NCBI GenBank assembly: GCA_013115125.1
Contig: JABANN010000016.1
Coordinates: 1 to 64,000 of the forward strand
DNA length: 64,000 nt
Direction of reading: 5' to 3'
Source of the DNA: Perkinsus olseni
Lineage: Eukaryota
In this document: positions 966-40,998 of the stretch, in pieces
Layout: every line of letters starts with the position of its first letter
Numbering within the stretch: position 1 is the first letter of the stretch
Program-made: the position numbers and the translations under genes
Notes under the pieces: generated by a model
Database searches by the model: none
The model's input: the letters and a program-made list of their open reading frames with translations, nothing else
What the model was told of the DNA's origin: nothing

Positions 966-1796
966 GATAGACAGGTTGACCACGATCCTGGGAGGCCTGG
1001 CGGAGCTCCGCCCGAGTTCCGCCTGCTCCTGAGCTACCCAGGAGTAATTCACTGGAGCCCCGCCTGCTCGTCGTCACCATTTGCCGTACCGGACCAAACG
1101 TAACTCGCAGAGCATACATATACAGTTGCAACCGTCGAAAAAAGAGCTCTTCCCCAACCATCATTGAATCAACGGCAATAGAACAATGTAAGGCGAGCTA
1201 CAGCCTTCAGGTGCCACTAAGCGGTGTGAAAAAGCCGTAGGTGGCCCCTGGACCAGGGGCCCTGGTGATACGGAGTGTCGTTGGGATCTGCCATAACGAG
1301 CCCTGCTTATTTCTGATGGGGTTCCGAATCCCCTAGCCGTCGTGGCAGATTAACTCGCTCATGATCATGCAAGTGGGGAGGGGCATCGGAGTGTTAACGA
1401 GTTTTACGAATGAATTTGTGTAGGTCACCATTGGCACGAAAACTCTTGTGTATAGCAACTCGCTTGTTGCGATATACGCTTGGTGAGGCTGATTTGTAGT
1501 TCGTGAGAATGAAAATCGTTGCTTGTTGCTCAGTATTGTTCTGGTAGTCGCCAAAATAGCAACAGTATCAGTTTCTCCAGTCTTCAAAGGATGCGTTGAT
1601 TTCTTCTTCTCTTTGAATTATGTCGCATGTTCGTTGTACAGTCTTGTGAATCGTCCACTTGCAGAGTTCTCCCTCCATCAGAGTTCACGCAGTATTAGCG
1701 TCGTGCGGAAAAACTACATAAATTTTAGCAAACTCGCTCTCGTGCATTCTCTGAAACAAGAAGCGTGACAAGTAGCTCTACCTCGACCGTTATCAG

Positions 1797-2331
1797 GTGG
1801 ATCGGCGGCGAGCGCTCAGGAGGCGGCACCCGTGGACCCCGCGGACAATCAACTTTTCAAAATTTACACGGCAAGGTAGGATGCATCGTGTTGGAGACCG
1901 ACTGATTGCGAACACAACACCCGAGTTTTGACATCCGGTATCCTCTTCTTGTCATTCGCCGCTTAACTCAGCTCCAGCGTACTCTGTTATCGGAGCAGGA
2001 TGCTCAACCAACGTGCTTCGGGCAGTCCGCATTCTGAAAACGCAGGTCCGAAGATGAAAAGATTCTCGCCGATGAGCATTACCCGAAATGGCTGTGGGGA
2101 CTGGAGCAGCCAGCTCCGGGTTACGGTGAACTCAGTCTGATGTTCGTCCACGGCTTGAATATCGAGAACGCTACCATGTACCACTACCACAGGTGAATTC
2201 GGACAGCAGTCCCTGCTGTCAGTTGCTGCAGCAGGTTCCTCCGGAAGCATAGGGTACTGGTGATTGAACACAACATCCGACTAAACAAGAAGTTCAAAAA
2301 GTCGTCCGATTGGCGTGTCATGACACATTGA
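1797..2331 (+). pseudogene. MRPL54: Mitochondrial ribosomal protein mL54 (L37-type), apparently 5'-truncated, 3 exons
   Basis: Spliced translation (exons ~1797-1875, 2046-2191, 2235-2331): ...QLFKIYTAR SEDEKILADEHYPKWLWGLEQPAPGYGELSLMFVHGLNIENATMYHYHRFLRKHRVLVIEHNIRLNKKFKK. D-x-x-YPxWLWxL and the following segment match apicomplexan-type mL54. No upstream start or targeting exon is seen. Confidence 0.7.
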
Positions 2332-3762
2332 GGGCGGGTTTCTAATATTCGCGACCGGCCATTTGCGTTCAACGTCATCACAGTCGCCTATGATCGCAAT
2401 CATATTCTGTTGATCGGAGTCCGGATGAAGGGACAGTAACTGGGCGTTGAGGACGCTAGGAACCGCCGGTTCCAGTGTCACTTACCTGAGCTGCCACTAA
2501 TCATGTGATATGATATGATGTGACATATCGCACTCTTCAAGTTTCTGCCGTCTACTACGAGAGGTCTACACAGCCTCGTTTGAGGTACACACCAATCAAA
2601 TGCCTTGTTTCTTTCGGGAGTTCACGGTGCGAAGCTAGTAGTTGTAAGCCGGATCGCCGACCACAGTTGATCCGTGGTGTCGAACTGGGCACCTTGACGG
2701 TATATCGCTCTGGAATGGACGGAGAAGTCTGAAGAGCATCGCAGGAGACTAAATTACCTCTTCAAGACGCCCCAATAGCCGATGATACTAACTATGGCAA
2801 CACAATCCCGGAAACAGACACAGAAATGAAAGTGACAGAAGTAAGTACTTGAGCCGAGAAGGTTGCCGGGAGTGTGAAGAATACGCCTCAGGGGACACTT
2901 GTTGCTGGAAAAATATCGAACGTCCGGTCTCTCAGATGGATCCTTTAACGCATCCACATTCGGGCTACACTCGAGTCCTTAGTGCACGACGCGGACCTTC
3001 CCATTTGGCAGGCTTACGGCCAATAAATGCCACCCTCGTCGAAGATAGTTTACCGAACGGAGTCGATTTACACACAGACAAGTTATGGAGCTATCACACC
3101 AAAGGGGACTCGCAATATAAGACCAAAAGGAGTGCAGAGCACCAGAGTGCGTTCGCGTACTGGTATCCCGTAAGGGAGACGCGGTCTCCGCCAAACCCTC
3201 CTCACTTGTTGGGAACCGCTTTTTCCTACGCGCCACCTCTGCATCAACACGCGACACGTAACGAGCTTTTTGATTGATTGTCAGACAGAGCAGGCTCGAT
3301 TTTGCGTGGTCTCATCGTAAGCTCATTAAATACACTTGCGCCTTGTCGCTGCAGAACGGACGCGGTCGCCGAAAACCAGAGTCTCCCTGCGACATGACCG
3401 ATTTCTATACGGCTGGCGCGAGACTTCTTTCACGAGAGCTTTCTTGGCTTATCCAGCCTGAGCTCCCGAATTCACCAACCGACTCTCAGGATAATCCAAG
3501 CGCGCTTTCGGTTGATGTTGTTATAATGTCTGCACTACAGTGCCATTCTCACAGCTTCACCTGTCCCGGACAGATAACACGTATCATTCTGCGCCTTCCA
3601 CCCGTGTGAGGTGAGTACACGTGGCAGCCTCAGCTAGAGATCACATCATCACTGAAATCTCTTCATTGAGGGGCCTCATTGCACTGAGATGTAGTGCATG
3701 CCTTGTCGCAATTCCCTCTGTTTTTATCAGTTTTTTTGAAGTAATCGCACTCACTGTGCTTC

Positions 3763-3984
3763 ATGAAGTTCATCATCGCTATGTTTATGCTAATCTCGGT
3801 GTGCGAGAACCATTTGATCCACTTCATCTACTGCCGCAACGACAAGAACTGCCCCAAGGGAACACCCAAATGTATCGATGCCAAGTGCACAACCAGCTGT
3901 AAGAATGACCAAGATTGTCATGATGCTATGGGCGCGATCTATCATTGTAGGCTATATCCCGGTGGTTTGAGGTACTGCGAATAG
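3763..3984 (+). CDS. Small secreted cysteine-rich peptide (73 aa, two CxxDxxC modules)
   Basis: ATG start, hydrophobic signal-like N-terminus MKFIIAMFMLISVC, 8 mature Cys, and an upstream pyrimidine tract with AG (tttttatcag). Confidence 0.7.
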   Translation: MKFIIAMFMLISVCENHLIHFIYCRNDKNCPKGTPKCIDAKCTTSCKNDQDCHDAMGAIYHCRLYPGGLRYCE

Positions 3985-4029
3985 CCTTCAGGCCTCCCTA
4001 AGGCCTCCATACGGTTCTCGAGACTTTTT

Positions 4030-5254
4030 TCAGTCATCACCCTTCATGCAGATCCTGGTGTATCATGTATTATGGCCAACCTGAACGGTATACCATTTCT
4101 GAGGCATTCTTTTCATGGTCTGCGAGCCCCGTGACGATGCACCAGGAGCCAATTAAAGTGCCCACTTTTCCAAGTCCAAGTGGAGGGAAAGTATTCATAT
4201 CCTCATTCAGTATCCTCATATCTTCTTGAACGTCGCACACGACTCCGAGGTCTGTAAATTTTCTGCCCAGCTGCCGTGTGGTAGCTTCCGTAACGTCCTT
4301 TGCCCATTCGACTAGTGTCTCACACACTAACGTCTGTCGGACCTTCCGACGGAGAAGAAAAGCTTCTTCGTCGAGAGTCCTTACGAGGTGGCCGGTTAAA
4401 TTTCAGCCGTTGCAAGAGATGCCTTCGGGCAAGTTCTCTCCAGCTACTGGCTACTTTTCTATTCTTTTCTTGAGTTCAAGAATCAATTAAGTTATTCACA
4501 GTGGCGGAAAGCGCGCCCGAAACACCAAACTCACTGAGGGAACACGCAACATCGCATATACACAATCCTTCTCTTCATGGTTTCACTATTTAACTCGTAG
4601 ATCTTCCGTCTTGTGTTAATATTTCACACGTTTGCGTATCATCCTTCCCAATGCTCGACCTACCACAAGGGCAGTTGCCTATAACTCGTGTAACGCAATA
4701 CAGTTCGACTAGGAAGCGCTAGTCAAGACACGATATGCGTCGTTTTTTGCTGACGATGCATGCCACCTCGACTGTGTGCTCTTTCGAATTAGAATGACCT
4801 GCCCTTCGAGAACTTTTCATCAGCATTTCCAGTTTCCTGGCGCGGTGACAAATCTCGTCGCCCTCCTTAATTCGTTGTCTCTGCTTCGCGATGACTTCCG
4901 AAAGTGCTGCGTTTGCAGCTTCAACCTCAGCCAACCTCAACATCGCATCCATCCGAGCGCTCACTGCACCGTGAAGATCAACGTCGAGCCTTGTCTTCCT
5001 GAACAGCATCAGAACTACGACCGACGCGCAGCCATCGGAGTCTACTCTGAATCGACCCGTTCCTGAAGCGTAACAATTTCGTCCTCCTGCGACTTCAGCT
5101 TGTCCCTCAACCACTCATTCTCTTTCTCAGCCTGTGACAATGCCCACTCCAAACGAACGCTGTGCTGCTTCGACTCGTTTGCTGATCTCTCCAGTATGCA
5201 CAGAGTACTCGCATTAGCCTCCACTCTGAACAAATACCAGACAGTGTAGCCCAT
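4030..5254 (-). pseudogene. Decayed copy 2 of the repeated family, with an N-terminal coiled-coil part
   Basis: Fragmented ORFs 5042-5254 and 4719-5114 (heptad-rich), then 4070-4327. Nucleotide homology to 205-965. Confidence 0.6.
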
Positions 5255-8917: not shown

Positions 8918-11564
8918 TCAGATATCAGGATTCTTCCACGGGGAATTCTCCGCGAATTCAAAGTCCGTCACTTGAGTCAGCTCGCCATGCCTGACATACA
9001 CAGATCCAGCGCAGGACACCTCGATGCGGGCCATTCCCTTATCTATAAGAACAATATTTAATACAATCGCCCGAGCGAGACCTCGAACATGCTGTCCTAC
9101 CGATGCAGAGAAGGCAAATAAATGAGCATAAATGATCCCTTCTGTACGTCAACGCTAAAGTACGATATCAGGAAAATCTTGTTGAATATTGTTCACACAA
9201 TGCGTGATATCAGATCACTATGAGCCAGACCGACAGGCGATCCCTTTAATACCTCCATATTCCAGATAGAACATGTCCGCTACTGAATTGCAAGATACCC
9301 CTAAGAATGAAAAACAATTGCAGCGGAGCGAAGCACGGCGATTCGAGCAGCTATTACCTGCCCTCTCTCCGGCCAAATGCAAACTCGCCTTCGTAACTGC
9401 TACCGTCTTCAGCGCAGGTGAACAGGCCACGACCTGAAACGCACAGTTTCTCAATCAAAACATACAATGGCATCTTCCGAACGAACACGCCATTTAAAAA
9501 GAACCAGCCCAGAAATTTTGTCGATTCAATAACGGGATGTCACTGATCAGATTGCTGTCAGTGAGAAAGAGTAGCGGAGCGAACACTGTGAAGCGAGCAC
9601 GGGGTGAACTACTCCCAGATGTGAACGCCGAGTAGCACAGTCACTCGCCACGAAATTCCAGAACTCCTACATCTACTCTTTAGCGAAAATCACCATCAGA
9701 CCACCTTTACAGCCCAATCGCCTTAGGTATCCGAGTTCGCGTCCGTCCACGAGCCGCGAGAAAGATACCGCCCTTCCAGTGCTGCACTACCATGCCTCTT
9801 ATCATCCTGCCATTGTCCTTCATACTTGTTGCCATTAGCATAGACAAAAACTCCGTACCCGCAAGCTCTATCATCTACCCATTGACCCTTGAACCTGAGC
9901 CAATGCCCAATAATGTCCCTCCTGTTTCCGGAATAATCTGTACTCACTTATCGCCATTGGAGTAAATGAGCTCGCCCTCTCCGTGCTTCTTAGCGTCCAT
10001 CCAGTCACCAACGTACTTGTCACCGTACGTATACACCAAAGTGCCTTTACCGTGCACCTGCAGAAACAGCTCTGTCGACTCCGCTAATCCCCCTAGAAGG
10101 TGGTACCTTGTCCTGCTTCCAGTAACCCTCATACCGTTCGCCATTAGTGTACGTGAGAACACCGTAACCCTCCTTCAAATCGTCAACCCATTCTCCTGAA
10201 AGCTCATAAATGTCGCCCGCCTATGCATTTCAACAAAATAGAACCATCAACTACTAATGCGAACACTCCCCAGCAACTTATACCCGACCACTCAGCGAAA
10301 ACGAACTTACTCAAATCATACATAAACAACAGTGTGAACATACCCTGCTGGGGCTCAACTTTTTCATAACAGCGAACTTTTCCATCGCTATCATCGCAGT
10401 CCGCGACACTGTGAGTTCAGCGTGAAAATAATTCTATTCAAAACCGTCGAGGGACTTAGACGAGAGAAACGACAGGACGAGAGGAATACCCCAGAGACAA
10501 CGAACGTCTTTCTACTATTGTGAGCACCAACGATGCTCCACCAACTCCCAGTGTAAGTTTATTACCCTCATATCGGTTGCCATTGGGGAAGGTGTAGACA
10601 CCCTTGCCGCACATCTTACCATCCACCCAGTCCCCCTTGTAGACGCCGCCGTCAGCGTACTACAAGCGACAAGCCTCCTACTCGACGACAGAAGTGAATC
10701 CCAATTACATGGTAAGTGCCTTGGCCCTGCATCTTCCCGTTCACCCAATCACCTTCGTACTTCTCAACGACCTGATGGAGCACACATTCACACGAGCAGG
10801 GGAAATCTCTCGCGTACCTGTCCCTTGGCCGACACGTAGGTGACAGTTCCCTTGCCATGTCTCTTGTCCTCTCGCCACTCACCATCGTACCTACAGAGTT
10901 GAGTTGCTGAAAATCTTTACGAGGTTGTTCTCTATTACACGTCGCCCTCAGCGTAGCGATAGACGCCGTGCCCGTGCATTTTACCGTCCTGAGAAGAGGC
11001 AGCACATACCACAGAACAGGAATAGAACCAGATATCAACCCAATGGAAAGTTGCCAATCTAACCACTACACCATCCTAGCCGGCCATCCTGTACTACATG
11101 CCATTCGCCTTCATATACATCCCCGTTGTTGTACTTCAGCTTGCCAGTACCGTTGATGCGGCCGTTCTCCCAGTTCCCCTCATACGAATTACCCGAGGCA
11201 AAATGGCTGACCTAAACTCACCAAGACCTTCCCACTCCATCAACAACCGACCCCTTCTCCCCCTACCCCATAACCCTGGATGTGGTCGTCCACCCACTGG
11301 CCATCATACACAGCGCCGTCGCTGTACCTAACCTCGGTCCCTCCATAACGATGGCAGTCAGCTCGCCTCATCCTCCTACGTGAATCGACCATGGCCTTCT
11401 CGCTTGCCATACACCCAATCGCCTTCGTATTTTTCATTGCCCTGGTATATTAGGGTACCTACACTAGCCCTCCAATGGCCCGTTACGAGCGCCGCAACGC
11501 TACCTTTGCCGTGGAAGAGGCCGTCCTTTATCCCGCCGTTGTACGCGTTACCGCAGTCTGCCAT
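8918..11564 (-). CDS. MORN1: MORN repeat protein, ortholog of apicomplexan MORN1
   Basis: Spliced product [46 protein letters not shown]...[18 protein letters not shown]...[23 protein letters not shown] is colinear end-to-end with Toxoplasma/Plasmodium MORN1 as I recall it. Stop TGA at 8918-8920. Confidence 0.93.
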
Positions 11565-23999: not shown

Positions 24000-24599
24000 C
24001 GCAGTTGGTGTAAGATTGTATCGATAGAGAGGTGATACGGCAATGACAAGCATCTTTACAAACCAAAATAGGCGATGCGCGAGGTTCAAACTCATAGGGC
24101 GCGCGCTTCGCTGGTGAATGAGCGCGTGTTAACGTGGCGCCCCCAATATGATGTTGGTTGGCGAAGTTGGAAGCATATGAGTGATGAATCAACATCATTG
24201 TATCTTCGAATATTTCAAATTGTCCGGCTCCTGTCACCATGGAGCAACAGAATGACCAAAGCGCCTTCGAGGTCGGGATTGATGGCAGACACGGTCAACG
24301 CAAGCCAATGTACAGGTAACTCTCTCCCTGTGATATGAGGGGGCTCTAGATCGCTCGAGTGCACTCGGTGTAGCATTGTGTGGCTAAGGTGTAATTAAGC
24401 ACGGTCCCGGGGTCACGCAGCCACATCGCACGGGACCCCGCACGTTACTGTGATCTCGGTCCTGACATAGAGCGTTTATACATCAGGATCTGCTATGGTC
24501 ATAGTAGACGATAGCGGATCATGCCCTCACTCTGGTGCGATGCGAGGCGTTACCGAGACCCCGGATAAGATAACAAACTCCGCTTGCATCTCAGTATTC

Positions 24600-25000
24600 G
24601 AACGGCCGACCAGCTCGAAATAATAGGAGGGCAACTTGCAGTATTACGTCGCAAACATAACGATACTGTCCTCATTCCGGTCTTCACACATCCCATTAGC
24701 TTGCTTCAGGCTTGTCTGGTGGACTGGGACTGGTGGACTGTGGTGTATGAGGGTGCCACTTTCGCGATACCTGTTATCTTCTCCGACGGCCCCGAGCCCT
24801 CTATGATCGCTATATGCGCTACTATAATAGAGGCCTGGCTCTCGGAGTTTTCTCCTGCTTCCGCGAACTCGATGGATGGACTCCATCATAGTCGATGAAC
24901 CTGGTTGCATTCCTTGGATTGCGCCAGTTCTACTCTGGCACAGTGGAGCCACGGTCGGCCAAGAATGTGGTACTCAAAGAAGCTGTTAGTAACAGCAGTA
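24600..25000 (+). mobile_element. Possible degenerate Ty3/gypsy reverse transcriptase fragment
   Basis: Frameshifted pieces LQYYVANITILS (YVDD-like) and LDGWTPS..NLVAFLGLRQFY (like W..P....L..FLGL..YY). Confidence 0.35.
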
Positions 25001-25309
25001 TCGCGAAGTTTGTCCGAGTAGAAGCGAGCCAGACGGAGAATGAATCTCGCGGTGTGGGCCGCACTTACTGTAACACTATGGATCTCCCCACCAGGAAGGA
25101 GCCGGAGGTTATGTTGGAGTGACTTGTTGGCGCACCAAATAGCCTGTAGCGCAGTTTCTCTGTGGTTGCATAGTACTCGTTATTCTGGATCGTCGCTGGG
25201 GCGCCTGCTTCCAACTAGATTCCCTAGGGGAGTTTCCCTTATCGATGGGCCATCGTCGATCATCGACGTCATGGCCATCATGGCCGAGAGACCCAAATCA
25301 CCAACTTGC

Positions 25310-25344
25310 GGACCATTGACTCGTGGTCCACGAGTCAATGGTCC
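25310..25344. repeat. Perfect 17-1-17 inverted repeat
   Basis: ggaccattgactcgtgg t ccacgagtcaatggtcc. Confidence 0.97.
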
Positions 25345-26156
25345 ACGAGGAATCTCAGTTCTGCCATCGATCGTGGGCGATATAAAATGAAAGTCGAATG
25401 AGGTTGCACTTCCAGCAGCATGGCCTTAGTGGTTTCACTATTACCGTGAGGGATCTCGGCACGGGATTCCCGTGCTGCTCCGATGAAGGCAGCGCTGGAG
25501 CGAAGCTTAACAGTCGACAGTTCTAGGCGGTAATCCACCGTCGCTAGCCGAAGGATTGTTTTCCAGAGGCCGGCGTTGGGTTCTTGAGAGTTTTCTCGGG
25601 ATGGCCACGAAGGCTTGTTTCTGCCCGGCGCTGTGGTCCACAGTAGGGTCCATACATTCCTACAGTAGGAATCATAGCTCTGGACCAGACCGCCGAATCC
25701 TACTACGTCCGTTGTTCGCGGCAGCTTCAAAAAAAGGTTGCGGTGGCGGCAAAACCTTCTACAGTTGAAAGTTCTGCATTCTGCCGCAACCCTCAGTTAC
25801 GGAAACGGCTCAACACAACGCAATGCCGCAATCATCTGACCAACATCACTCTGAAGAAGTAGGACTGGGTCCAGGCATCTCTGGGATGCCGGATATCAGT
25901 GTTCCACAATAATCCTCAGCAATCAAGGAGCTTCGTTGCATATTGCAGCACGGCGCTGACCCAACACAAATGACTCCATTGACACAATTGTGTGTTCCAC
26001 GCTGGAAATCCCGCACCAAAGTGACTTCCGATTCCAATTTTGAGAATGGGCCGTTTCGCTTGTGACTATTTGCAACTCAAGACCCAGCTCTAGCTAGAAG
26101 ACACTCCAACGTTCAATACTCGAATAATGAACGAAATGACACGAATGCGCACACTT

Positions 26157-27511
26157 TTAAAGTTCCTCGTCAGGTCGGGGCACCGGGCGATGCACCTGCG
26201 ACCACTTCGCCGATATGAAGTCTCCGAACGCCATGATGTGGCCGTCATCCTCTATCCATCCCGAAGCGCCTCCCTCCTTCTGATCTGCAACCAGGCTTGT
26301 CCTGCACGATGAATTCAATGAATAGGGCACGAAATCGGATCCCCCGTCGGGAGACTCCCGATACCTTTTGGCTGCGTCGGAGTGGAGAAGGCCCTCGAGA
26401 GTTGTGTTGTAGTTAGGGTAGTAGAAGTGTACCAAAGATATCCGCTCCGGAGCTTCCTTCGGTGGCATCACCTGAGGCAGCGGACAAGTATGGCGCAGCA
26501 TTCGGCCCTCGCCCAGGGTACTCGATGAACCGGCGAGTAAAATTTCCCTCCGCTCATGATCGAGGCAAAGTCTCCCACGTTGACAACAACCCGGGACGCT
26601 CGATCGTTGGGCAGGCGATGTAATCTCTCTGTTCGGGGATCTTGCACCTTGAGGAATGAGCAACACTCTGCCGACCTCGACGAGAACTTCTCTGAGTGTC
26701 ACTTGCCTGTAGCCCATCAACTCCTTCTTGCTGCAGCACAATTGTGATAAACCCCCAATCCGTATGAGGCGAACTTCCGATAGTCTTCCCGCCTGAAGAA
26801 ATAGCTGCAGAACATCATTGCGCGCTCCCACGACTGCCACGTGATCGATCATCTCCTTCTTCAGCAAAATATCGGTAGATCCTCTGCAAACTTATGGATG
26901 CACCATCTGATCCACAGTTCTTGGAAAGAGCCTCCTGCCCTGATCGCAAAGATGCTGCTCCGGATAGTGAGCGAGCAAGTCCAACCTGAGACGTGCGCTA
27001 GGGCTTTACACAGAGCGAGGCCAAGTCTCGTAGCTTCGTTGAACCACTTGACCAACGTATGCTGATCCTCTGCCGGAATCTTCGCGGGCCAGACATTGGG
27101 GCCTTGGAGTTTGTTCGCGAATGCACGATGAGTCTTCGGCCACTCGAAGCCATATGAAAACCCCTCTTTCATCTCCTTGAGGTCTGAGCCGCTCTCTCCA
27201 CCAAACAGAACGTATCCGCGAGTCAAGCCACCGCTTGAGACGGAAAGCCTCTCCTTCTCTGACGCATCAACGTCGGTGAATAATCTTCGAGCACTGGAGA
27301 GCACACCGTCAATGAAGTCGTCATCCACACCGTGGCCACGAAGGACGAACGCGCCCCCACCGGATTCGGATGCAGCGCCTAGGAGCTTCGACGCCTCGTC
27401 TTCGCACTTGTCGCCCGGGTGGTCACCGAAGCATGAGAGGTCAATGACCGGAGCTTCCCAGGACCGAGCACATACGGAGACTACAGCGGCGAAAAGGGTA
27501 AACCAGGCCAT
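26157..27511 (-). CDS. 2OG-Fe(II) oxygenase, IPNS/DIOX_N-like, copy A, with signal peptide and C-terminal DEEL
   Basis: PVIDLS, GAFVLRGHGV, LTRGY, KEGF, GPNVWP, HTDWGFITIVLQ, VVNVGD, SPVHRV and RISLV motifs. Ends PDEEL*. Confidence 0.9.
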
Positions 27512-28521
27512 GGGAAGAAATTACTCGATGCAAGCAACTCAGAATCGTCAGGAGAATCGCGGTACCCGAGAGACATCGCTAACGCCGCTGAGAAACGCAG
27601 CAGGTATATGATCAGCCATCGCTCGCCCATCGCACAATTCGGCTTGAAGGTGACTCAGTGACTCTCCACTCATCCATCTAGCCATAGTTCACGCTATTGG
27701 TAAAGGACGCTTCGTCCCTCGGAGTCTTTCCAGAGGATAACCGTTCCCCGATAGCCATATTCCTGGGTTTGAGGTTCCTCACAGGACATCCCACGAAGAA
27801 ATGGTAGACAAAGCCCATGTGATTGTCCTCGATTCGCGTACGATTGTTAACGAGAGTCGCTGTTTGCGACCTGTGACCCGCGGACTCCGGGGCGTGGGGG
27901 TGATTGCCCGAACCGCTAGCACATTTAGTGCTACCGTCATTCATATATCAAATTCATTCTCCTGTTCCCTGCAGCACTGGCAGTACCGGATTGTGTTTGG
28001 CCGAAATTTTGGACGCGTTCTTGTTCATTTTTCTCGTCAGTCGAATTAGGTACTGCGCTGCCTGACGCTGAATGTATCACACAGGCACCTAAGAATCATA
28101 TCTCTTTATATAGTGGCGTCATAGTGTACCAGACAACAGATCATCATCGGTTGTGAATCTCACTTATCCACCCGTATTCGCTGTTCTATTGGTATTCGAC
28201 CCCAGCCTGTGTTCTAAGCGCCCGCGTTGGCAACTTTGGTTCATTGTTGTCAATCAGTGACTCGAGTATCCAAACTCAATGGGCGAACCAGTGCACCTCC
28301 GACGACCAATAATGCACATCGAACATTTCGTGTATCGAGGGAAGATCCAAAGCAGTCCGCTCCAGGAGACAGCTCTGTGTCGGGCACTCCCGTTGTCGGC
28401 TGCAACGTTGAATTTTGTCGGCACACTCGGAGCCGTTCGCTTGTTACCCTCCACTGAAACTCAAGACCTCCCTTCACCTAAGATATACCTTCATCTCGTG
28501 ACGAAACAGACACGCGCACTT

Positions 28522-29912
28522 TCAAAGCTCCTCGTCGGGTCGGGATCTCGGCCGATACACTTGCGACCACTTCGCCGATATGAAGTCTCCGAACGCCATC
28601 ATGTGACCATCCTCGGCTATCCAACCGGAAACGCCTCCCGCCTTCTGGTCTGTCAACAGGCTGGTCCTGTAGAATCGACAGATACGGAACGGCTGAAGCG
28701 GCTTCAGTGAAGCCTGTCGTCACCTTTTAGCTGCATCAGTGTCTAGGAGCCCCTCGAGGGTGGTGTTATAGTTGGGGTAGTAGAAGTGTACGAGAGATAT
28801 CCTCTCCGCAGCCTTCTTCGGCGACACCACCTGGGCCATCGGGCACGTATGGCGCCGCGCCCAGCCCACGACTGGTCTACCCGATGAACCGGCGAGTGGA
28901 GCTTCCCGCCGCTCATGATGGAGGCGAAGTCTCCGACGTTCACCACCATACGGGATGCTCTATCGTTCGGTAGCGGGTGGTATCTTCCTGTCTCAGAATC
29001 TTGAACCTCGAAAAATGCACAGGAAAGGATTGTCGTAATCGCTGACTTTACCTCGAGCCCATCAACTCCCTCTTCCTGGAGAACGATAGTGATGAATCCC
29101 CAATCAGTATGAGGGGAGCTTCCAATAGTCTTGTCACCTGGACAAGAGAGTGCTCAACCGCGCATACTCGCGAGGGAGATGCTCCGAACAGCATGTGAGT
29201 CACAGGTACCAGGAATCCGCATTTCGGCGAGCGAAGTCACCTGAGCTGTCATCTCCTTCCACGGCGAAATATCGAAAAATTCTCTGTAAACTAATGGACG
29301 CCCCGTCCGGTCCGCAGCTGTCACTCAGTGCCTTCTGACCTACACTTAGCAATCGGTCAGAGCGATCATATAGGGTGTTGGCCCACCTAGGGCACTTGAG
29401 AAGGCTCTCGCAAGCGACAGGCCCAGCCTTGTAGCATGCCCGAACCATTCGTTGAGAACGCGCTCATCTTCGGCCGAAATCCCTGCTGGCCAAACGTTTG
29501 GCCCTTGCAGTTTGTTGGAGAAAGACTTGTAGCCTTCAGGCCAGTCGTAGCCGTATGAGAAGGCCTCCTTGATCTCCTCTCGGTCTGAACCACTCTCCCT
29601 GCCGAGGGGTACGTAACCGCGAGTAAGGCCATCGCCGATGATGGACAACCGCTCCTTCTCTGACGCGTCAACGTCGGTGAATAATCTCCGAGCACTGGAG
29701 AGCACACTGTCGATGAAATCGTCATTCACACCGTGCCCACGAAGGACGAACGCGCCCCCGCCGGATTCGGATGCAGCGCGTAGGAGCTTTGACGCCTCGT
29801 CTCCACACTTGTCGCCTGGGTAGTCACCGAAGCATGAGAGGTCGATGACCGGGGCTTCCCAGGACCGAGCAGACAGAGATGCTAGAACACCGAACAGGAT
29901 GGAGTGGGTCAT
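28522..29912 (-). CDS. 2OG-Fe(II) oxygenase, IPNS/DIOX_N-like, copy B, with signal peptide and C-terminal DEEL
   Basis: Tandem paralog with the same motifs (HTDWGFITIVLQ, VVNVGDFASIMSGGKLHSPVHR). Ends RPDEEL*. Confidence 0.9.
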
Positions 29913-30581
29913 GAAATTCCCCATCTGTCGATGGAGGTGCGCATTGTGACCGTAACGCCAATCCAACAGTCAATTTGTTCAGAGTTCGCTCAACACTCAT
30001 GCTAAGTGCACTGTGCAACGGGTAACTCGCTCTTATGCCCTTGTCGAGGACTCTTGTAACCCATGGAAATTTCCCGCCGGAACTCTGGGCCCAGGAACTG
30101 ATAAGCTCCCTCTAATTATAGTATTTCGATTGGGCCTAGCGCTTCTGCCGGAAGTCTCCCGGTTCGAGGTCGGGGCTCATGAGACCATCAAAGAGTATGC
30201 GGCGCGAGTGTAGTATCGTGAGGCAATTGCCTGGTTTCTGCTGTCCGCGGAGCAACGATGCACCGGGTGGACTGCGGATGCTGACGAGAGAAACCCATAT
30301 CAAGTGACCCTTCCACCGCAGTGTATTCCAGTGACGGGAATTTTTCACCCCTTGTGAGTTTACTGCTCGGCCACACAATCGTCCCAGCCGAGATCGAAGG
30401 AGTCTATCGTAGTGCAGTGATGACACGATACCTATTGCCTCTTCGGCACCCACAGCCCCTCACTACGTAAAACTCAACTTGGAACAGATCGTGAAAGGTG
30501 TGAAAAAAAGGTATGACTTTTGGTAAAACAGAGAAGGCGAAATAAAACGAGTTAATAGATAGAGTCCCAGCTGCTGGTCTT

Positions 30582-31454
30582 TTACTTAACAGCCGGGCCG
30601 GAAACTATGATGGAGTGGCCATCAGGATCGGTCATGTAGATCACCTCTTCGTCGTACCTGGAGTCCTTCTCAGCGCAGTACTCCTCCTTCAAGCGATTGA
30701 AGACATCCGCCTTCACCCTGACGCCGAATCCACGGTATCCGAGCTGATCACTCGGGCTCTCCTTAAGGCGGCCGAAGCGATGCTTCACTTGCAGCTCTAC
30801 TGAGGTGAAATTGCGAGACCACAACCACTCGCGGTTCTCAACGGCCCAAGGATCGGTCTTTGGGGGCTTTTCGGTCGTGTCCGCGAAAAAATGCAAGTCG
30901 AAAGCATCGCTGACGTACTGAGTAGAGAGCAGCTTCATACCCAGCATTTTGGTGTAAAACTCCTTGCTGCGCTTGGCGTTGGTCGCTCGGAGAGTCAATA
31001 GGCCAATACCCGCATCCTGGCCGAGTGGGCTCTTGTCGTCCTTGAAGGAAGCCGCGTACTCCTCGCTGAAATTCTTTTCGAATTGGTGCTGTATGAGCTC
31101 GATGTTGTATCCGATAGGATCTTCCGTGTGAGCTAGATACCCTACGTCCTTGAACTGAAAGGAACTGGATACAGGGACGCCCATTTTGGACAGCTTCTGG
31201 CGAGCGAGCTTGACGTGTGGCAAGTACAGGGAGATCTTCCAGTACAAGTCGTCATCGAGAGCACTGTACGTGGCTGCTGGATTTTCGTGGACCCTGAACT
31301 CGATGCCGGCAGCCTCAGGCTTCGATGGGTACCCGACGGTAGCCGAAGTAGAGGTCCTGCTCATCGTCACCATACCGAGACGGGTTCGATACCAATTGAT
31401 AGTTTGCTCTAGCTCAGCAGCACGAACCATGAGGATGACGAAACGCACGGACAT
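30582..31454 (-). CDS. Two-domain glyoxalase/VOC-family protein, intronless
   Basis: 290 aa with two VOC repeats (WYRTRLGM...DPIGYNIELI; FYTKMLGMKLL...DPDGHSI). Confidence 0.88.
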   Translation of the reverse strand: MSVRFVILMVRAAELEQTINWYRTRLGMVTMSRTSTSATVGYPSKPEAAGIEFRVHENPAATYSALDDDLYWKISLYLPHVKLARQKLSKMGVPVSSSFQFKDVGYLAHTEDPIGYNIELIQHQFEKNFSEEYAASFKDDKSPLGQDAGIGLLTLRATNAKRSKEFYTKMLGMKLLSTQYVSDAFDLHFFADTTEKPPKTDPWAVENREWLWSRNFTSVELQVKHRFGRLKESPSDQLGYRGFGVRVKADVFNRLKEEYCAEKDSRYDEEVIYMTDPDGHSIIVSGPAVK

Positions 31455-32122
31455 TTGTAGCGGTCGAAAGAGAAAGATTCGCTAAGTGAGACTCTCACTG
31501 TGAGAGTTGGCGGGGATTCGAGACAGAAAATGAGAAAAACGGGAGTGAGGGCGCTCCCAGTGATGAGAAAATGCTAACGGACGGCCAGCGCTTTTCGGGG
31601 AAATCTTAGACGAAGGGCAGGCAAAGCTGTGGAGATACAGAGCAAGTGCATCTTGTCGTTTTCACGACCCGTGTACGCGCGCGCATAATCATCGGGAGAC
31701 ACCGCCCTCAGGGCGGCTCCCAAATCCGATGGGACTAGTCTACGGACGAGTTGGCAGTTCGCTTCTCGGGAGAAAATCGAGGGAACACCGAAAATCGGTA
31801 ACAGCCTAGAAGAACATTGTTATAGAGACAGGACACGCCAGGTAGGAGCGGTAGCCGTACACCTGCCATCCACAGCGTCGGGTGCGAATGCTTCTGCCGA
31901 GGGGACAACGGCGTGAAATTACGACGTGACGCCACTCGTCAATCCGTCGTCCAGGCCAGCGTACGCCAAATCCGAAAGGAAAGAGTACAATTCATTCAGG
32001 AAGTCTCATGTGACCGGACACTTTAGACAACACCTCCCTGCCGTACTCAAAGGTTACTAGTGATAAGAAAGTTAGCAAACTTGACGCTGTGTCCATGGAT
32101 GGATGCCACAAAAGAGACCGGG

Positions 32123-33324: not shown

Positions 33325-36300
33325 TCAGGTAGAATGACTATCGCCACGGGCGAACGTATTGAAAATCTGCTCGAGGGTCGTCTGGGAGAGCTGAAAATCG
33401 TGCATCTCAAGCTCCTCCTTGGCATCAGCATCGGACAGCTCAGAGAAGATGGACCCCAAATCAATGTCGCGCGGAAGCGCAAATTCTCCAACTTCTTCCA
33501 AGGTTCGAGTCTCAGGAGACACATGTTGCATAAGCCACTGAAGAGCGTTCATGTGCTGGAGGGCTCGGGCCGCAGCAGAAGCCAAGGCGCCACGGTTGAA
33601 GGTTCTATTGAAAGTCTCGTCCAGTGTCCCAGCGGTCAACACACTATCGATCAGACGCTGCTCGCTGATGCCTGAGAGAGCATCAGAAAAATCATCGCAA
33701 CACGAAGCCGGATGAAGCTCACCGAGTCGTGTGAGTTGTGCCGTCAAATGAGTGTCTGTGAGGGTGACATACTCGCCATGCGCGGAGGTCTCCGCATCTT
33801 CCGCTGCCAGAATCTGCTTCATCGCGCGCTGCTTGTTCTCTTCGGAAGCATCTCGGAAGTGTATCCAAAGCCTGTACCCACGACCGTAGTCGGACTTGAT
33901 CTGTTGGGATGTCCCGATACAACGGAACTGTCCGTCAACCTACAGGAATGGAAATCATCACAGAATGGTGAGCAGCGAATCGTAGGTACCTGGATGACCA
34001 TCGTCTCACACACAGCATCGGCCTCCTCCATGCTGTGGGTAGTGAGTATAACCGCAGTATAAGTCTTAGAACGATCGTGAGCTATCTTATGGATCACATC
34101 CCAAATGCGTCTAAGTGGGGAGCAGGTCTCAGGCATGTGCCTAAGACCGATCGGCATCACCTTCTAGCCCCAGGGTCAACTCCCGTCGTCGGCTCGTCCA
34201 GGAATACTATGGGAGGATGCCCCACAAGAGCCATACCTACACACAACTTCCTTTGGTTGCCACCAGACAGCTTTACCGCCTCCTTGTCGATGTAGCGCCT
34301 GACGTCAACCGTCCGTTCTTCGTAGCAAAGCGCCGGCACAGACAGACTCACTCAAGCTGCAATATCTTGACCAGATCATCAACGTGCTGAGATATCCTGT
34401 TTGACGGTACTCCACGTATACGCGCGTACCTGAGGGTCAATCAGAAGCCGCCAGCGTCCTGAGCGACCTACAGGTAAAGATGGTCTTTTGCCGTAAGGCC
34501 TTGCAACAAGGGGCTTTGCTGTGGGCAGTATCCCACGGACTTCCGGACCTGGAGCCGAGACATACCACAAAAGGACCTAATCGTGTGGCACAGTCTTACC
34601 TCATACACGTTGCCCTGCAACGGTCGACCGACAAGATTGATGTGCCCAGCGCTCGGCCTTATCAACCCACAGAGCATCCTGAAGGTGGTGGTCTTGCCGG
34701 CACCATTTACTCCCAGTAGGCCGAAGACTCCACCATCAGCCAGGGCGTAATTGATGCCTCTCACCGCCCATACCTGATACATCATCATATGGCCGGACAC
34801 TTACACGTTTTAATGCACCCACCTCGCTATCTTTTCCTGGATAGAAGACCTTCTTGAGATCCTTGAAGTAGATCATCTGAGTTGTCGGGTCGAGCTTGGA
34901 TACTCTCTCCTTCTCCGCTATGACCCTCTCGTCCTCGACACCACATTTCTCCGGAGGAACAGCCAGGTCTCGATCAGGATTCCACTTGTCGTCATTCAGC
35001 TTGTAGTCCAAGAACAACAATAGACCGAAGTAGATGACCCCGTAGACAAACAGCATGATGACATCGTCACCGGCCACAAAGGCGCATACGTTGAAGGGAT
35101 TGCCGTTGATGTCGAAAACTGTGGTATCGTGACAGGTCCTCAGAATCTGTGAGTCGAAGGGCTTAGGGGTGAACGAGCCTGCTCCTGTGTTCTGTAGGCC
35201 AGTGAAGAAGATGGTGGTCAGGCCCTGCGCCACTGAGTAGGTTGGGAATACCCTCACAATCCACATCAAGATCAGTCCAGCAAGAGGCGAAATCCTAGCG
35301 AAGAACAGCACTGAGATGGCGAAGGAGCCAACCAAACCACCAAGGATTGACGAGGCTATCCTCATGTAAGTAGCGATCGTGCTAGTGCGCGCCACTACAC
35401 TGATGAGGTAATTGAACGGTGGGGTCGCGAAGCAGAAGCCGACCAGAAGAGCCCACACGGCAGCCTGGTTGTCCGGTTGGAGGTAGGTATTCACCTCGTA
35501 GACCCTTAGAGGGATGAAGGTGAGGCAAACGGCGATGAGGGAGAATAAGAAGTCGAAGACCCAGCTCGCTGTCCAGTACGGGAGCAGCCCGCAGCCGCTG
35601 ACATACAGCTGTTCTTTGATCTTCGTCGTCTTTTCCATCATCATGTAAGATAAGAGCGTCGAGGCCACAACCGTGAGAGCTATGGCGTAGAAGCCGCCCA
35701 CTGAGAAGGTGACCGCGAAGTTTGTGAGCGAGTTGGAGAACTGAGATGCCGTATGCGGGAGGGGGTGGTTGACAACGGTGAGGGGCTGATTTCCGGCCAA
35801 GGCGAACGGCGTCATGTGGAGAGCAGTCATATCAGCGAAGACAGACCTCGATGTGACACCCAATGCCGTCACCTCAAACCATGCAGTATCCTCGCCTAGC
35901 AGGGAGGCTGAGAACCTCAGGATACCCGCACACAGTGCGTTATTGAGGGTTGAGTTAGGCGGTGTGTTGGGCTCGTAGGGGATCGCATCGTAAGGCTTCA
36001 GTAGGGAACAAGCATGTACCTCAGCATTGGTCAGAGGCAGAGAGGCATCGATACTCGGCAAGGGTTGGCCGTTCCTCGCGACGGTGACAACGAAGGGATC
36101 CACCGTACTCCACTGGGCCACTATATGCTGACTCGGCCCCGCCTTGTAGGGGTTGGAGGACGGACGCAACGTCAAACTGGTCGCGTCCCCGATACTCACA
36201 GCCGTCTTCTGGAAACCCAATAGGACCAGGAGGACCACCATTGGTATGAGTAAAGCAGCGAGAGTGCCAACCCAGTTCCGATAGGCATACACCAGTCTTC

Positions 36301-39300
36301 TCATCAACAAGCCGCGGACTTGCTGCGAGAAGGTCGGTTTCAGCTCGATTTCGTAGGCGTCGTCGCCGAGGCCCTTGCCGATAGAGTCGGAACTTGGGCT
36401 AGAACGCCGAGCGACCTGAGGAGGATACCAATACACCCATACCGTACGCGAGCGAGAAGAAGTAGAGAAACCTCCGTGAGGTTGCTCAGAGCAGTGACTA
36501 GGACTGTGCTCAACGGAATCATTACTGCCCATAAACTAAGCTGACGGCTGAACCAGTGTTGTCAGTACAGCTGTACCGACGACAGGTCCGAGTCGCAGTA
36601 ACACGAGTATTCATACCATAAGGACACGATCACTCCATCGAGGGATCTCCGAGTAACCAAGCGAATGAAGCTGAACTTTAAACCTTAACCTCGGTCTAGC
36701 ACGGCGCTGTGTCACATGCTACTACCAATCACGGCGTCCAATCACCAACCGCTGAGCTGGACTCACGTTGAGGAAGACATCCTCCATGCTCGATATTGAT
36801 ATGCCGTACGAAGTTATCTGATCAGCGGACTTGCAGTCCTCGAGGCCCTCGAAGATCTTCGGGAAGCTCGAGGCACAACTATAAGGAACCTGGCAGAGAA
36901 AGTTGTAAGAGTGCCATCTCTTCGGATAACCACACCAACCTGTAGGGAGAGCTCCTGACCAGCACTTGACCGTACACGGACGGAGGAGGGGTCGTCGATA
37001 CTCTTCTGGACGACCTTGACAAGGGGTTCATCCGGAACCTTGGAGTCTTTCTTGGCGATGCTGAGGGTGTAACCCGTACCTGAGGTGATCATGATTAAGG
37101 GGTTGGGTGAAAGATACAACGAGCTCACCAAACTGCTGCTTGAGGAAGCTAGTAGTGCCGTACGCCATCAGTTTGCCATTCTCCATTATACCAACTCGAT
37201 CGGCTAAGACGTCTGCCTCGTCCATGTAGTGTGTGGTGATGCAGAGGATCCTTCCTTCACGCTTCGATCTCAAGAAGTCCCACATTCTACGCCGAGCGCT
37301 CGGGTCCATACCGCTACTCGGCTCGTCTAATATAACCAACTTGGAGTCGCCAACGAAGGCCAACCCGACCGACAGTTTCCTCTTCATACCACCTGAGGGA
37401 CGCACAGCTGATGAAGACACGACCGGAGCTTCTGAGTCTACCCGACAGAGTCTTCACTCGCGCCCCGAACTTATGCCCGAGTTCTATCTCAGTGGCAAAC
37501 TCAAGTGCCTTCTCATCACGACTTAGCCCACGAATATTGGCGAAGAGATTGAAGTGCTCCTCGACGGTGAGGTCGTCCCATAAGACGTCGTGTTGGGGGC
37601 AAACGCCCATGCTTCGGCGAATGACCGGCATCTCAGTCGGCACTTTATGACCGTAGACAGTCACTTCCTAACACAGAAGCTCAGCCTTATTCGGTTCACA
37701 GCAAGCGCACGGCCAACCTCACCCCGCTGCTCGGGACTAACATCCCACTGAGAACATTGATGGTGGTGGACTTGCCGGCACCATTGTGGCCGAGAAGGAC
37801 GAAGAGCTCATCCCGATACATGGTCAAATCCAGGCCGTCAACCGCACGGACTGACTTGAAATGCACCTGAATGGAAACCAACGATAATACGCAAGTCGTC
37901 GCCGACACAGGCAGTACCCTGAGGTCGTGTATTCCGATAGTGGCCTGCTCTCTCTCCAGCTCCTTCTGATACTCGCCAGAAACCTTCTCAATTCCATACT
38001 GCCGCTCGTCGTTCGAGCTGGTCCTTTCTTCTGACGACTGGTCACTCGAGCCCTGAGTTTCCCCGTCATCGGAGATATTTTGGCCTCGCATTTCCCTCCA
38101 GAATGAGCGGGTGAAAAGGAAGTAGAACTTCCGGCTGGACCGATACTCATGCGGGACGACTTGGTCCAGATAGAGGTAGACGGCGGTCCACAGGACAATG
38201 TCGACCAGGAGCATTATGAGACCTTGTATGAGGTTGAATTCCTCAAACTTCAGTGTGGACGAGGGGTTGGCCAGACCGAGGAAGACCTGCTGACCGAGGT
38301 TCTGCATGACTAGGGTATACGCACACTGCGGCAGCAGCGATACGGCCCACTTGTCGGTCTCTCGGTGGACGGCGACCAGGACGAACGATAGTATGTAGTA
38401 GATGACGGCTGTGAGGGTCGAACCCGAGTTGGGGTACTTGAACAGTGTCGAGACGGAGAAGGCGAAGGCCATCGATGCATAGAAGTAGAGGAAGGTGAGA
38501 AGGAAGAGCCACAGAGCTCCGAAGGGGGACAGGATCCCCAAAGACAGGAGAGCTACAGCAATAGCGAGAACAAAGTAGAATACGAAGTACCAGGCATACC
38601 ATGACAGGTTGTATGGGAGGTCATGAAGGCCCATGATGCGCATACCTGAAAGAAAGACTTTCCGTCGGAGGGATGGGAAAACAACAATAAGCGTACCTTC
38701 TCGCAGGCGGCCACGTCTCTCTGAGATGAGCTTCCTTGAAACCGAAAAAGCCGAAAATGTGAACAGAAGCGCTCCCACGATGCCAGAAAGCTGTTTCATA
38801 GTACCACCAGACCCACGCTCCTTGTACGAAGGGTAGGGCATCGGGTAGAGCGCGGCGACGGGCACGTCCGAGCTTCTAAGATAGTCCATCCAAGTAGCCA
38901 TGAGCAGGGGGAAGTCCAGGGTATCGTAGTAATCCAGACCGTTGTCTATCGGATCGCCGTGCTGGTAGTCGCCGTTTTCCGCGTACCAGTAGCGCGTATA
39001 ATCGCTGTAGTCGTCGGAAGCCCCGGTGGTCGCGTTGCTCCTTATGGTCACTTCATTCTCCTTCCCTACGTCCATGTAGTAGCAGATCTCTGGATGGCTA
39101 TCGGAGCCGTACGCAGGAGACTTGACGTAGGCCGATGGATCAGATATTGAGGTGGTCAGGCTCAACAGCGGCGCCCCGCCGCATGTACCAACGCTACCGG
39201 CAGCACCAATACGTCCGCGCAGATAGCTGGCGAAGGCCTCTGCTCGCTGTGACCCCGAAGGACCGATGGCTAAAGTACCACACAGGCACTTATCAACTAA

Positions 39301-39693
39301 AAGGATCAAGTTGGACTGGCGGAAGAAGGTCGAGTAGGGGACCAGGCCTGATAGACTGAGGGACGAGTAGAGCTGCCGGGCCTCATCCGCGTACGAGGTG
39401 GTGCCGACCCGCAGGTCAGGACCTGAGCCGCCCGGGTTCACTGGGTTGTCGGCAGCAGGCTGAAAGGGAAACTCACAGTCAAGTCGACCGACGAATGAGA
39501 CACGTCAGACGACTGCGCTCACCATTGTTTTCAAGACGTTCCCATTTGTGTTGGCGAAGGGTGGTATAAGCAGCGCAGCGATGGCCACGATGAGCGGTAG
39601 GAGAATTTCGCAGCACACTGTGAGTTTGGACCGACGGGACAGAATAAAGTTCTTCTTAGTGAGCGCCCCAATCTGAGCAGTATCGAGACTCAT
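33325..39693 (-). CDS. Full-length ABC transporter subfamily A, copy 1
   Basis: TMD-NBD-TMD-NBD layout. [74 protein letters not shown]-terminal SQTTLEQIF. Confidence 0.95.
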
Positions 39694-39834
39694 CACTTCC
39701 AAGGCCTGCTTGACACGAACAGGAGCTCCCTCACCTGAGCCCACAGTAGGCTCCCATGATGCTTTCTCGTAGTCGACACAGCGACGTCGGTCATTAATAA
39801 ATGGGCAGAGAGACGAAGGTACTCCCTTCCAAGC

Positions 39835-40870
39835 TCATTCTTGGCACGTGCTCTGTATCACCCTCACGCGACACCACATCGAGAAGTTCGCTCTGCAAGG
39901 TCCCCCCCTGCACGGGTCGAATCCGTTTGAGCCTTGTGCTAAGTGCGACAGCTCCACCAGGATGATATTGTCTCCACCTACTCTCCAGAAGGAGCATGTA
40001 GGATGGCTACCGCTACTGAGAATCACCAGGTGCCCGCTGTCCGTACGTACGCCTGGGCATTGAAACTGACCCCAAGTTCATTAGAAACTTACTAATAACA
40101 AGTACGAGCCAAAGGCCATTAGCGGAAAGAAGGCACTCCCAGGCCAGCGGACTCGTATGGGAGTACAAATCTGAGGCCCTGTCTCCCTCAGACTGCGGAG
40201 ACAGGGCACCGGATATCTCGCCCTAGCGTCGTCACCCTCCCACGTCACGCAGCCTAGGACGACTACCCTAGAGTGGAGATGACCAGAGAACGGGATAAAG
40301 GACGTGGATGGAGGCTGGTACGCTGGAGTGATGTTCCCCTCGGTCCTCTCAGCAAATGGAGATTCACTTGCCACCGACTGTAGTGGGCAGAGGCAACCCG
40401 GAGACCATGAAGGCGCGGGCGCGCGCTTTTCGGATCGCCCAGATCACGGCCACATACGTCACGGTATGATACGTCTCAACTACTGGAGCTCCTCCGCTGG
40501 TCCCAGCGTCTGACTGTGGTCGGAGGGTCATTGGCCAGCACTGGTCAGATCGAAAATAGGGCCGGGCTTGTTGTCACTTATACATCCACTCCACGAGTGT
40601 GGCCGAGGATGGCTCCACGGCGTGAGTCCCTCCTTTTCTTCCTCCACCTGGTGGTGTCAATGGAACGCCTTTTTTATTTACTTTCTAGACCAGCCATGCC
40701 GTTGGTTGATGGCCTTGAACGACACGGTGTTTGGTGGAGAGTCTCGGGATGAGACCAATCGCTGGGTTCAGCTCAGCTGACGAGGGGGAGGATGAGGAGG
40801 GCCGCACTCCGTACCACGACGCTTCTGCGGAGTCTCCCCCTTCGCTGATCTTGGTTTGTTCGCTCACTCC
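39835..40870 (-). pseudogene. Degenerate coding remnant, possibly GH35 beta-galactosidase C-terminus
   Basis: Frameshifted fragments EWMYK, IFDLTSAG, ARAFMVSG and GGDNIILVEL loosely recall GH35 C-terminal motifs. Confidence 0.25.
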
Positions 40871-40965
40871 GTCCTACTCGGTTGCAGGGCACAGCTGTCG
40901 TCGAGCCTACTCGCGCTCATTCGAAGTCGGTTATCGTATGCTTTAGGGTATGCTTTTGGCCTACA

Positions 40966-40998
40966 GACACGTGACACGGTGTCACGTGTCACTGACAC
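40966..40998. repeat. Chained 12-1-12 and 6-1-6 inverted repeats
   Basis: gacacgtgacac g gtgtcacgtgtc, followed by the overlapping gtgtca c tgacac. Confidence 0.95.

Follow-up and report, generated by a model that had tools for sequence, protein, structure and literature searches.

The window analyzed here, a 64,000-nt stretch of Perkinsus olseni DNA (contig JABANN010000016.1 of assembly GCA_013115125.1, positions 1 to 64,000), is rich in short perfect palindromes centred on a single base. Most of them belong to one 22-nt structure (the 22-mer), written on an arbitrary 8-nt word, which occurs as perfect copies and as copies decayed by point changes, is depleted in coding-like DNA and is clustered in a few regions. 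The palindromes are probably (we put the probability at about 0.6) fossil donor-site scars of a hAT-like cut-and-paste DNA transposon, one that makes an 8-bp target duplication and leaves its site by way of hairpins in the flanks; the agent may also belong to a related superfamily that forms flank hairpins and duplicates 8 bp.

Palindromes with a Single-Base Centre

Only innermost perfect inverted repeats were counted in the census, and 30 dinucleotide-preserving shuffles of the window served as the control. Repeats with a 1-nt spacer numbered 71 with arms of at least 6 nt, 43 with at least 7 nt, 16 with at least 8 nt and 8 with at least 9 nt, against shuffle means of 16.2, 4.4, 1.5 and 0.5, respectively. 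At spacers of 0 and 2-10 nt, repeats with arms of at least 7 nt stayed at chance (0-8 for each spacer versus shuffle means of 2.9-3.7). The excess is real, far above chance and confined to the 1-nt centre; a raw surplus at odd spacers of 3-11 nt arose because those repeats are nested inside 1-nt-centre palindromes, and it was gone after de-nesting. The arm lengths at the 1-nt spacer peak sharply at 7 nt (n = 27, versus 1-3 at spacers 0 and 2-4), and ten pairs of palindromes have their centres exactly 7 nt apart. Next to these ten doubles, the census of the window contained no triple chain.

The original prediction, made from the letters of this DNA alone, had described such palindromes, often chained, in the noncoding part of the sequence. 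Every palindrome that it listed is present at, or within 1 nt of, the place given, and the one put at 15018-15030 exists but really occupies 15017-15031, with 7-nt arms. Its chains are real, corresponding to the ten pairs mentioned above. The seven palindromes with arms of at least 9 nt were recovered in the range that it covered, and an eighth lies beyond that range, at 61079-61103. The statement that all of them fall outside intact genes is roughly right but not exact, as several lie in introns of dioxygenase genes and one in a phosphodiesterase exon.

The 22-mer Unit and Its Decay

Two 7-1-7 palindromes (arm, spacer and arm, in nt) with centres 7 nt apart make up a 22-mer of the form a-w-x-w'-a'-w-x', in which w is 6 nt. 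The same structure can be written as T(1-7), followed by the reverse complement of T(1-8) and by T(2-8), where T is an arbitrary 8-nt word with end bases t1 and t8. This pattern imposes 14 constraints, and a direct scan of the window recovered 9 copies with no mismatch, 6 with one, 13 with two and 36 with three, compared with means of 0, 0, 0.3 and 6.8 in ten shuffles. The same scan with a 9- or 10-nt unit gave nothing at up to two mismatches and with a 6-nt unit no perfect copy, while a 7-nt unit gave no perfect copy, 2 with one mismatch and 9 with two. Each of the nine perfect 22-mers has the complement of t8 at its first centre and that of t1 at its second.

Twenty-four of the 43 perfect palindromes with arms of at least 7 nt lie inside 22-mers with at most two mismatches, and another 6 lie inside 22-mers with three, a class that counts for less because a few of its members are expected by chance. 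The true solo palindromes number 13 of the 43, where about 4 are expected by chance, and 7 of these have arms of 8-17 nt. Most of the 7-1-7 palindromes that look solitary, including those at 777, 15651, 25467 and 26354, are the intact halves of decayed 22-mers. This relationship had escaped the original prediction, as had the 7-nt spacing of the centres and the 8-nt unit itself.

The words T are mutually unrelated, apart from one near-twin pair, and because the unit sequences are unrelated the scars reflect a process rather than a repeat family, as had been proposed. A miniature inverted-repeat transposable element (MITE) or another dispersed palindromic element was ruled out, since the copies share no sequence outside that pair. 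The near-twins, at 1245-1266 and 16159-16180, carry the nearly identical units CCCCTGGT and CCCCTCGT; both are preceded by GG, and their flanks are non-alignable.

Decay is visible at each level of the structure. Repeats with 7-nt arms and a 1-nt spacer number 43, 144 and 827 at zero, one and two mismatches, compared with 2-5, 74-86 and 727-757 for the even spacers. Eight near-chains of palindromes occur, versus 0.4 in the shuffles, and they are mostly 22-mers with point changes. The 22-mers themselves form the series 9, 6, 13 and about 29 (for the last class, 36 found minus 6.8 expected), a pattern that points to mutational input over a long time with neutral decay afterwards, rather than to conserved elements.

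Location and Clustering

Coding-like DNA makes up 40% of the window and holds 8 of the 43 palindromes (binomial p = 0.002) and 4 of the 28 22-mers with at most two mismatches; the division is a rough one, made with a crude and weak codon-usage score (54% of the training codons score above 6). The palindrome in the phosphodiesterase exon is probably one of the roughly 4 expected by chance and not a scar. Each of the two dioxygenase paralogues carries a unit in the same putative intron, with different sequences and at different offsets. The open reading frame (ORF) 16470-17078, which spans four of the units, was considered as a gene and rejected; it has no homologue at E <= 0.01 (proteins of 111-356 residues) and for this reason is treated as noncoding.

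The units are concentrated at 14.8-16.9 kb, 23.0-25.5 kb, 0.4-1.3 kb and 61.4-62.9 kb (Table 1). The variance-to-mean ratio per 2-kb bin is 2.9, versus 1.1 for random placement in noncoding-like DNA, and none of 5000 random placements reached the observed level, a clustering that fits local hopping or insertion hot spots. Within the second of these regions, positions 25240-25290 form a knot of overlapping palindromes, with centres at 25249, 25261 and 25279, together with a 9-nt tandem repeat, TCATGGCC(A/G), which looks like several events at one spot.

Table 1. Coordinates of 22-mers, hot spots and palindromes in the window
Feature	Position	Strand	Remarks
Perfect 22-mer, unit CCCCTGGT	1245-1266		0 mismatches in 14 constraints
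Perfect 22-mer, unit GCCTTCAC	15010-15031		Pattern scan
Perfect 22-mer, unit CCCCTCGT	16159-16180		Pattern scan; near-twin of the copy at 1245
Perfect 22-mer, unit ACTGCTGC	16846-16867		Pattern scan
Perfect 22-mer, unit GTGTAGCT	23635-23656		Pattern scan
Perfect 22-mer, unit CTGAAGCC	28693-28714		Putative intron of second dioxygenase gene (minus strand)
Perfect 22-mer, unit AGTGAGAG	31485-31506		Closely upstream of glyoxalase-family ORF 30582-31454(-)
Perfect 22-mer, unit GGTCAAGC	61368-61389		Beyond the range of the original prediction
Perfect 22-mer, unit AGGCGAAC	61577-61598		Beyond the range of the original prediction
22-mer, 1 mismatch	763-784		Holds 8-1-8 palindrome 769-785
22-mer, 1 mismatch	14855-14876		Second centre is t1, not its complement; the 6/8 chain at 14856-14877
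22-mer, 1 mismatch	16336-16357		Pattern scan
22-mer, 1 mismatch	16663-16684		Holds 7-1-7 at 16663-16677
22-mer, 1 mismatch	23332-23353		Pattern scan
22-mer, 1 mismatch	26340-26361		Putative intron of first dioxygenase gene; holds 7-1-7 at 26347-26361
Hot spot	14855-16867		10 of 28 units with at most 2 mismatches, at 14855, 15010, 15515, 15644, 16159, 16336, 16541, 16663, 16718, 16846
Hot spot	23053-25474		7 units with at most 2 mismatches, at 23053, 23332, 23635, 23674, 23956, 25219, 25453, and long solo palindromes
Long solo palindrome, 15-1-15	23932-23962		Region of overlapping events
Long solo palindrome, 17-1-17	25310-25344		Imperfect extension to arms of 22 nt
Solo palindrome, 12-1-12	40966-40990		A 6-1-6 palindrome is centred 14 nt further on
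Solo palindrome, 12-1-12	61079-61103
Older long palindrome	15042-15088		22-nt arms, 91% complementary, around gcg
7-1-7 palindrome in phosphodiesterase exon	53002-53016	+	In frame, no indel relative to PDE4

A Proposed Origin from Transposon Excision

hAT elements make an 8-bp target duplication, according to PMC4763223, and are described as excising through hairpins on the flanking DNA (PMC4763223, PMC5499845), a type of intermediate that PMC5499845 also reports for MULE and Transib. A hairpin-intermediate repair scar or hAT-type footprint was among the origins proposed in the original prediction, and this idea has gained ground, as the chains are a fixed 22-mer whose 8-nt unit equals the hAT duplication size given in PMC4763223.

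The sequence of events would be as follows. Insertion would produce the arrangement L-T-[element]-T-R, in which T is the 8-bp target-site duplication, and excision would seal each flank as a hairpin whose one-base tip is complementary to the base that had been in contact with the element. If both hairpins were opened far from the tip and then unfolded, the left flank would end with T(1-7) plus the reverse complement of T, and the bottom strand of the right flank with the reverse complement of T(2-8) plus T. The two 3' tails would then carry the reverse complement of T and T itself, complementary over exactly 8 nt, and could anneal. Flap trimming and gap filling would convert this joint into L-T(1-7)-rc(T)-T(2-8)-R, where rc denotes the reverse complement. 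This product would be the 22-mer, a net gain of 14 nt that comprises two 7-1-7 palindromes with centres 7 nt apart, both of which would come out as complements of the end bases of T, matching the observation.

If a tail were joined elsewhere, the outcome would be a solo palindrome whose arms could have any length (8-17 nt here); the one at 23932-23962 would reflect a hairpin that was opened past the 8-bp duplication and left a long palindromic tract. The scars would later decay by point mutation and would survive only where 14 additional nucleotides are tolerated, as in introns and intergenic DNA. Zhou et al., in 2004, are said to have placed the first hAT nick one base into the flank, and this offset would account for the single-base tip of the hairpin. 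Since the window contains no transposon or transposase, we infer the transposon, as well as the hairpins and the repair by annealing (microhomology), from the scars. Two features of a hAT footprint are found in them, namely the 8-bp basis, as only the 8-nt unit yields perfect 22-mers, and the one-base centre complementary to the base that would have stood beside the element, in nine of nine perfect 22-mers.

Several results weigh against this origin, and the first group concerns the element itself. A scan for a perfect 7-9-bp duplication plus a 12-nt inverted terminal match found no pair of terminal inverted repeats with a perfect 7-, 8- or 9-bp duplication in the window, save two weak 7-bp hits, and a relaxed scan gave one hit, versus 0-1 in the shuffles. 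No transposase family was detected with Pfam among 163 ORFs of the window (15 long ORFs plus 148 of the 190 stop-to-stop ORFs of at least 90 aa); the remaining 42 overlap genes recognized among the long ORFs (ABC, Kelch, dioxygenase and glyoxalase). A hAT element, with a DDE transposase carrying BED and hAT dimerisation domains and with short terminal inverted repeats, was not found in the 64 kb, nor was a report of hAT elements in Perkinsus found in the literature, where only Dada and Merlin-related transposons have been reported from this genus.

The second group concerns the products. The simple footprint, consisting of two copies of the duplication with flipped end bases, occurs 3 times where 1.5 are expected; where duplications are retained, the palindromic tracts of 1-5 nt between them number 0 in each class, compared with 9 for the full inversion; and tandem repeats at an 8-nt offset do not exceed those at neighbouring offsets. 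The heterogeneous spectrum of a hAT footprint, with short deletions, short tracts and the flipped-base form, is not seen, and the products are therefore far more uniform than those reported for Ac/Ds in plants, yeast or Candida. The hAT target preference is nTnnnnAn. In the 15 units with at most one mismatch no such preference is seen: 4 have T at position 2, 4 have A at position 7 and none has both. The near-twin 22-mers at 1245 and 16159 are a misfit, for which target preference or coincidence are possible accounts. Last, the single usable paralogue comparison that involves a palindrome, 43011-43025 versus 34802-34820, shows no clean 7- or 14-nt gap; paralogues were accordingly rejected as stand-ins for empty sites, their introns being too diverged.

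Two sequence pairs were examined as possible elements or element ends and discarded. One is a 23-nt inverted pair, 16178-16200 and 18900-18922, the first member of which abuts the 22-mer at 16159 and the far end of which has no matching scar or duplication. The other is the GCTGTCACAGC pair at 23854 and 23989, which is no better than chance, its 4 matches being equalled by 5 of 100 shuffles.

Alternative Explanations

The alternative that survives best is an error of replication or repair independent of any transposon, in which synthesis switches strand and back, copies 8 nt in reverse and inserts rc(T) + T(2-7). A double strand switch could write the 22-mer, which amounts to a walk over base pairs 1-7, back over 8-1 and forward over 2-8, and the all-or-none product and the window devoid of a transposon suit such an event. 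Short tandem duplications (runs of at least 6 nt) are also mildly enriched at all offsets of 4-15 nt, with 17-26 versus about 12-14 in the shuffles; their peak at offset 14 (n = 34) is due to the 22-mers. However, a template switch offers no reason for a fixed 8 bp, as nine perfect copies exist at 8 nt and none at 6, 7, 9 or 10, and a processive fold-back should yield triple chains, of which there were none among ten doubles. The turn is always a single base, with no excess at spacers 0 and 2-10, and turning on one unpaired base, with no microhomology, would leave the polymerase no primer-template pairing. The fold-back or template switch put forward in the original prediction is thus not favoured, given the restriction to the 8-nt unit and the lack of triple chains and of intermediate lengths, and we consider it unlikely.

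Slightly less likely still is a nonmobile hairpin-forming nuclease, for instance a domesticated transposase or a different activity that breaks DNA and forms hairpins at hot spots. There are precedents in domesticated hAT transposases that generate hairpin-capped breaks, among them Kat1, as described in PMC4763223. An activity of this kind would fit the strong clustering in a few regions of 2-3 kb and a window with no resident element, and the solo palindromes with arms of 8-17 nt require one hairpin end only. The 22-mer, in turn, would need both broken ends to carry one identical 8-nt word and hence an earlier duplication, which a break made by such a nuclease does not supply, and no common recognition motif was seen beside the palindromes when their flanks were inspected by eye.

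Selected functional palindromes, acting as protein-binding sites or as DNA or RNA hairpins in splicing or regulation, are very improbable. Both dioxygenase paralogues have one near the 5' end of the same putative intron, and another gives GTAAGC on both strands at a putative exon-intron junction of an ABC transporter gene. Yet the arms are unrelated, the mismatches indicate continuous decay and not conservation, the paralogous introns differ in palindrome and in offset, a 1-nt loop is unable to close a hairpin, and no Rfam family matches the window. A sequencing, amplification or assembly artefact is the least credible origin, for library chimeras can produce short perfect palindromes but would not avoid coding-like DNA, cluster in particular noncoding regions, form a series with one, two and three point mismatches or be fixed to an 8-nt unit.

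Comparison with Known Systems

The closest counterpart of the proposed excision scars is provided by the Ac/Ds footprints of plants, S. cerevisiae and Candida albicans, as presented in PMC5873905, including its account of Coen 1986, Yu 2004 and Lazarow 2012. In that description, Ac/Ds (hAT) excision leaves palindromes of flanking DNA around a one-base centre, which complements the base beside the element, the duplication is 8 bp, microhomology is frequent at the joints, and the arms reach about 20 nt in yeast (PMC5873905). Unlike Ac/Ds, one product dominates here, in which two 7-nt remnants enclose the duplication's full reverse complement; no intermediate tracts of 1-5 nt occur, and the simple footprint with flipped bases shows no enrichment. 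Moreover, in contrast to excision assays, these are fossils in a wild genome, at a density of about one per 1-2 kb and with no element at hand.

Short template-switch mutations and quasipalindrome correction, reportedly described by Ripley and by Loytynoja and Goldman, resemble the present events in that local inverted repeats are made or perfected in a single step. They are said to vary in length and position, with no fixed 8-nt unit and no obligatory single-base centre, and in this respect they differ from the 22-mers. RAG and Transib make a 5-bp duplication. The P nucleotides at V(D)J coding joints, Transib and MULE have in common with the palindromes a hairpin-capped flank opened off-centre, which generates a short palindrome (PMC5499845), but these hairpins leave short tracts, unlike the 22-mers. 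For Muta1, PMC5499845 describes mostly precise excision and duplications of 8-9 bp, whereas the 22-mers are built on 8 nt only.

Kat1, the domesticated hAT transposase of Kluyveromyces lactis, likewise produces hairpin-capped double-strand breaks on host DNA (PMC4763223). As far as it is described there, it acts at one locus, with repair by gene conversion and no genome-wide trail of 22-mers (PMC4763223). The introners of Amoebophrya, another alveolate lineage, also have inverted repeats within introns; they are characterized in PMC7789003 as repeated families with inverted repeats of 8-20 nt at the intron ends and direct repeats of 3-5 nt (PMC7789003). In contrast, the sequences found here are unique, with arms that meet around a single base and a unit of 8 nt.

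Genes and Other Features of the Window

The window has about 52% G+C and no N, and no tRNA gene, rRNA gene or Rfam family was matched in its 64 kb. ORF and Pfam scans identified a minus-strand tandem array of ABCA-type ABC transporter halves, two tandem 2OG-Fe(II) dioxygenases, a glyoxalase-family protein, a Kelch protein and a cyclic-nucleotide phosphodiesterase. The protein encoded by the Kelch ORF shares 95% identity with a protein of Perkinsus olseni and 46% with one of P. chesapeaki. An organelle origin was ruled out by the lack of tRNA and rRNA genes together with the nuclear-type ABC transporter, Kelch, dioxygenase and phosphodiesterase genes; the window is Perkinsus nuclear DNA, from an alveolate that parasitizes molluscs.

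The ABCA-type genes lie at 34100-39500 and 42300-47700 on the minus strand, with a repeat period of about 8.0-8.2 kb. Patches of 86-100% identity stand out from a background of 62-78%, such as 34596-34801 versus 42801-43006 (93%) and 37293-37338 versus 45259-45304 (100%), and this sequence pattern suggests recent gene conversion. The 7-1-7 palindrome TGTAAGCcGCTTACA (43011-43025), with GTAAGC on both strands, sits at the putative exon-intron junction of the second ABC gene, and the 93%-identity tract stops exactly there. Its paralogue (34802-34820) has no palindrome and instead shows GTAAGT about 19 nt further on.

The dioxygenase genes occupy 26148-27520 and 28513-29969, also on the minus strand. 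In the first copy, Pfam did not detect the C-terminal domain in the long ORF 26157-26867, and this copy may be degraded or read in another frame. Between 4000 and 12000, about 8 kb show a strongly negative GC skew (-0.12 to -0.24) and Pfam hits are scarce, limited to a single MORN repeat at 10655-11065(-) and weak coiled-coil matches; this region is free of palindromic scars although its coding-likeness is low. At the left end of the window, 152-972 and 3976-4798 form a diverged duplication, 74-83% identical and about 3.8 kb apart.

Significance for Perkinsus

A literature search found no account of such palindromes in Perkinsus. The original prediction had spoken of an undescribed genome-shaping process, an overstatement in that the excision chemistry is known; what appears to be new is the lineage, the dense fossil record and the uniform 22-bp product. 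If the transposon origin is correct, the formula T(1-7)+rc(T)+T(2-8) would count and date past excisions from a single genome, and the count would need neither a second haplotype nor a surviving element. The shaping of introns and intergenic DNA by a transposon would become measurable in a commercially important shellfish parasite, its insertion hot spots could be located, and the repair of hairpin-capped breaks could be inferred in a little-studied alveolate. Annotators would then have to take short perfect palindromes in Perkinsus introns as mutational scars and not as regulatory hairpins.

A more specific proposal, which we offer as tentative and rather doubtful, is that Perkinsus has, or recently had, a flank-hairpin transposon that is hyperactive though present in very few copies, or a derivative of one tamed by the host, whose donor sites were mended almost exclusively by annealing of the two unfolded hairpin arms. 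In that case every hop would write the same 14-nt insertion and scars would far outnumber elements. The uniform product would be a readout of an unusual repair, in which hairpins are opened at a long distance from the tip and microhomology governs most joining, and the scars would represent a major source, so far unrecognised, of indels and palindromes in Perkinsus introns and promoters.

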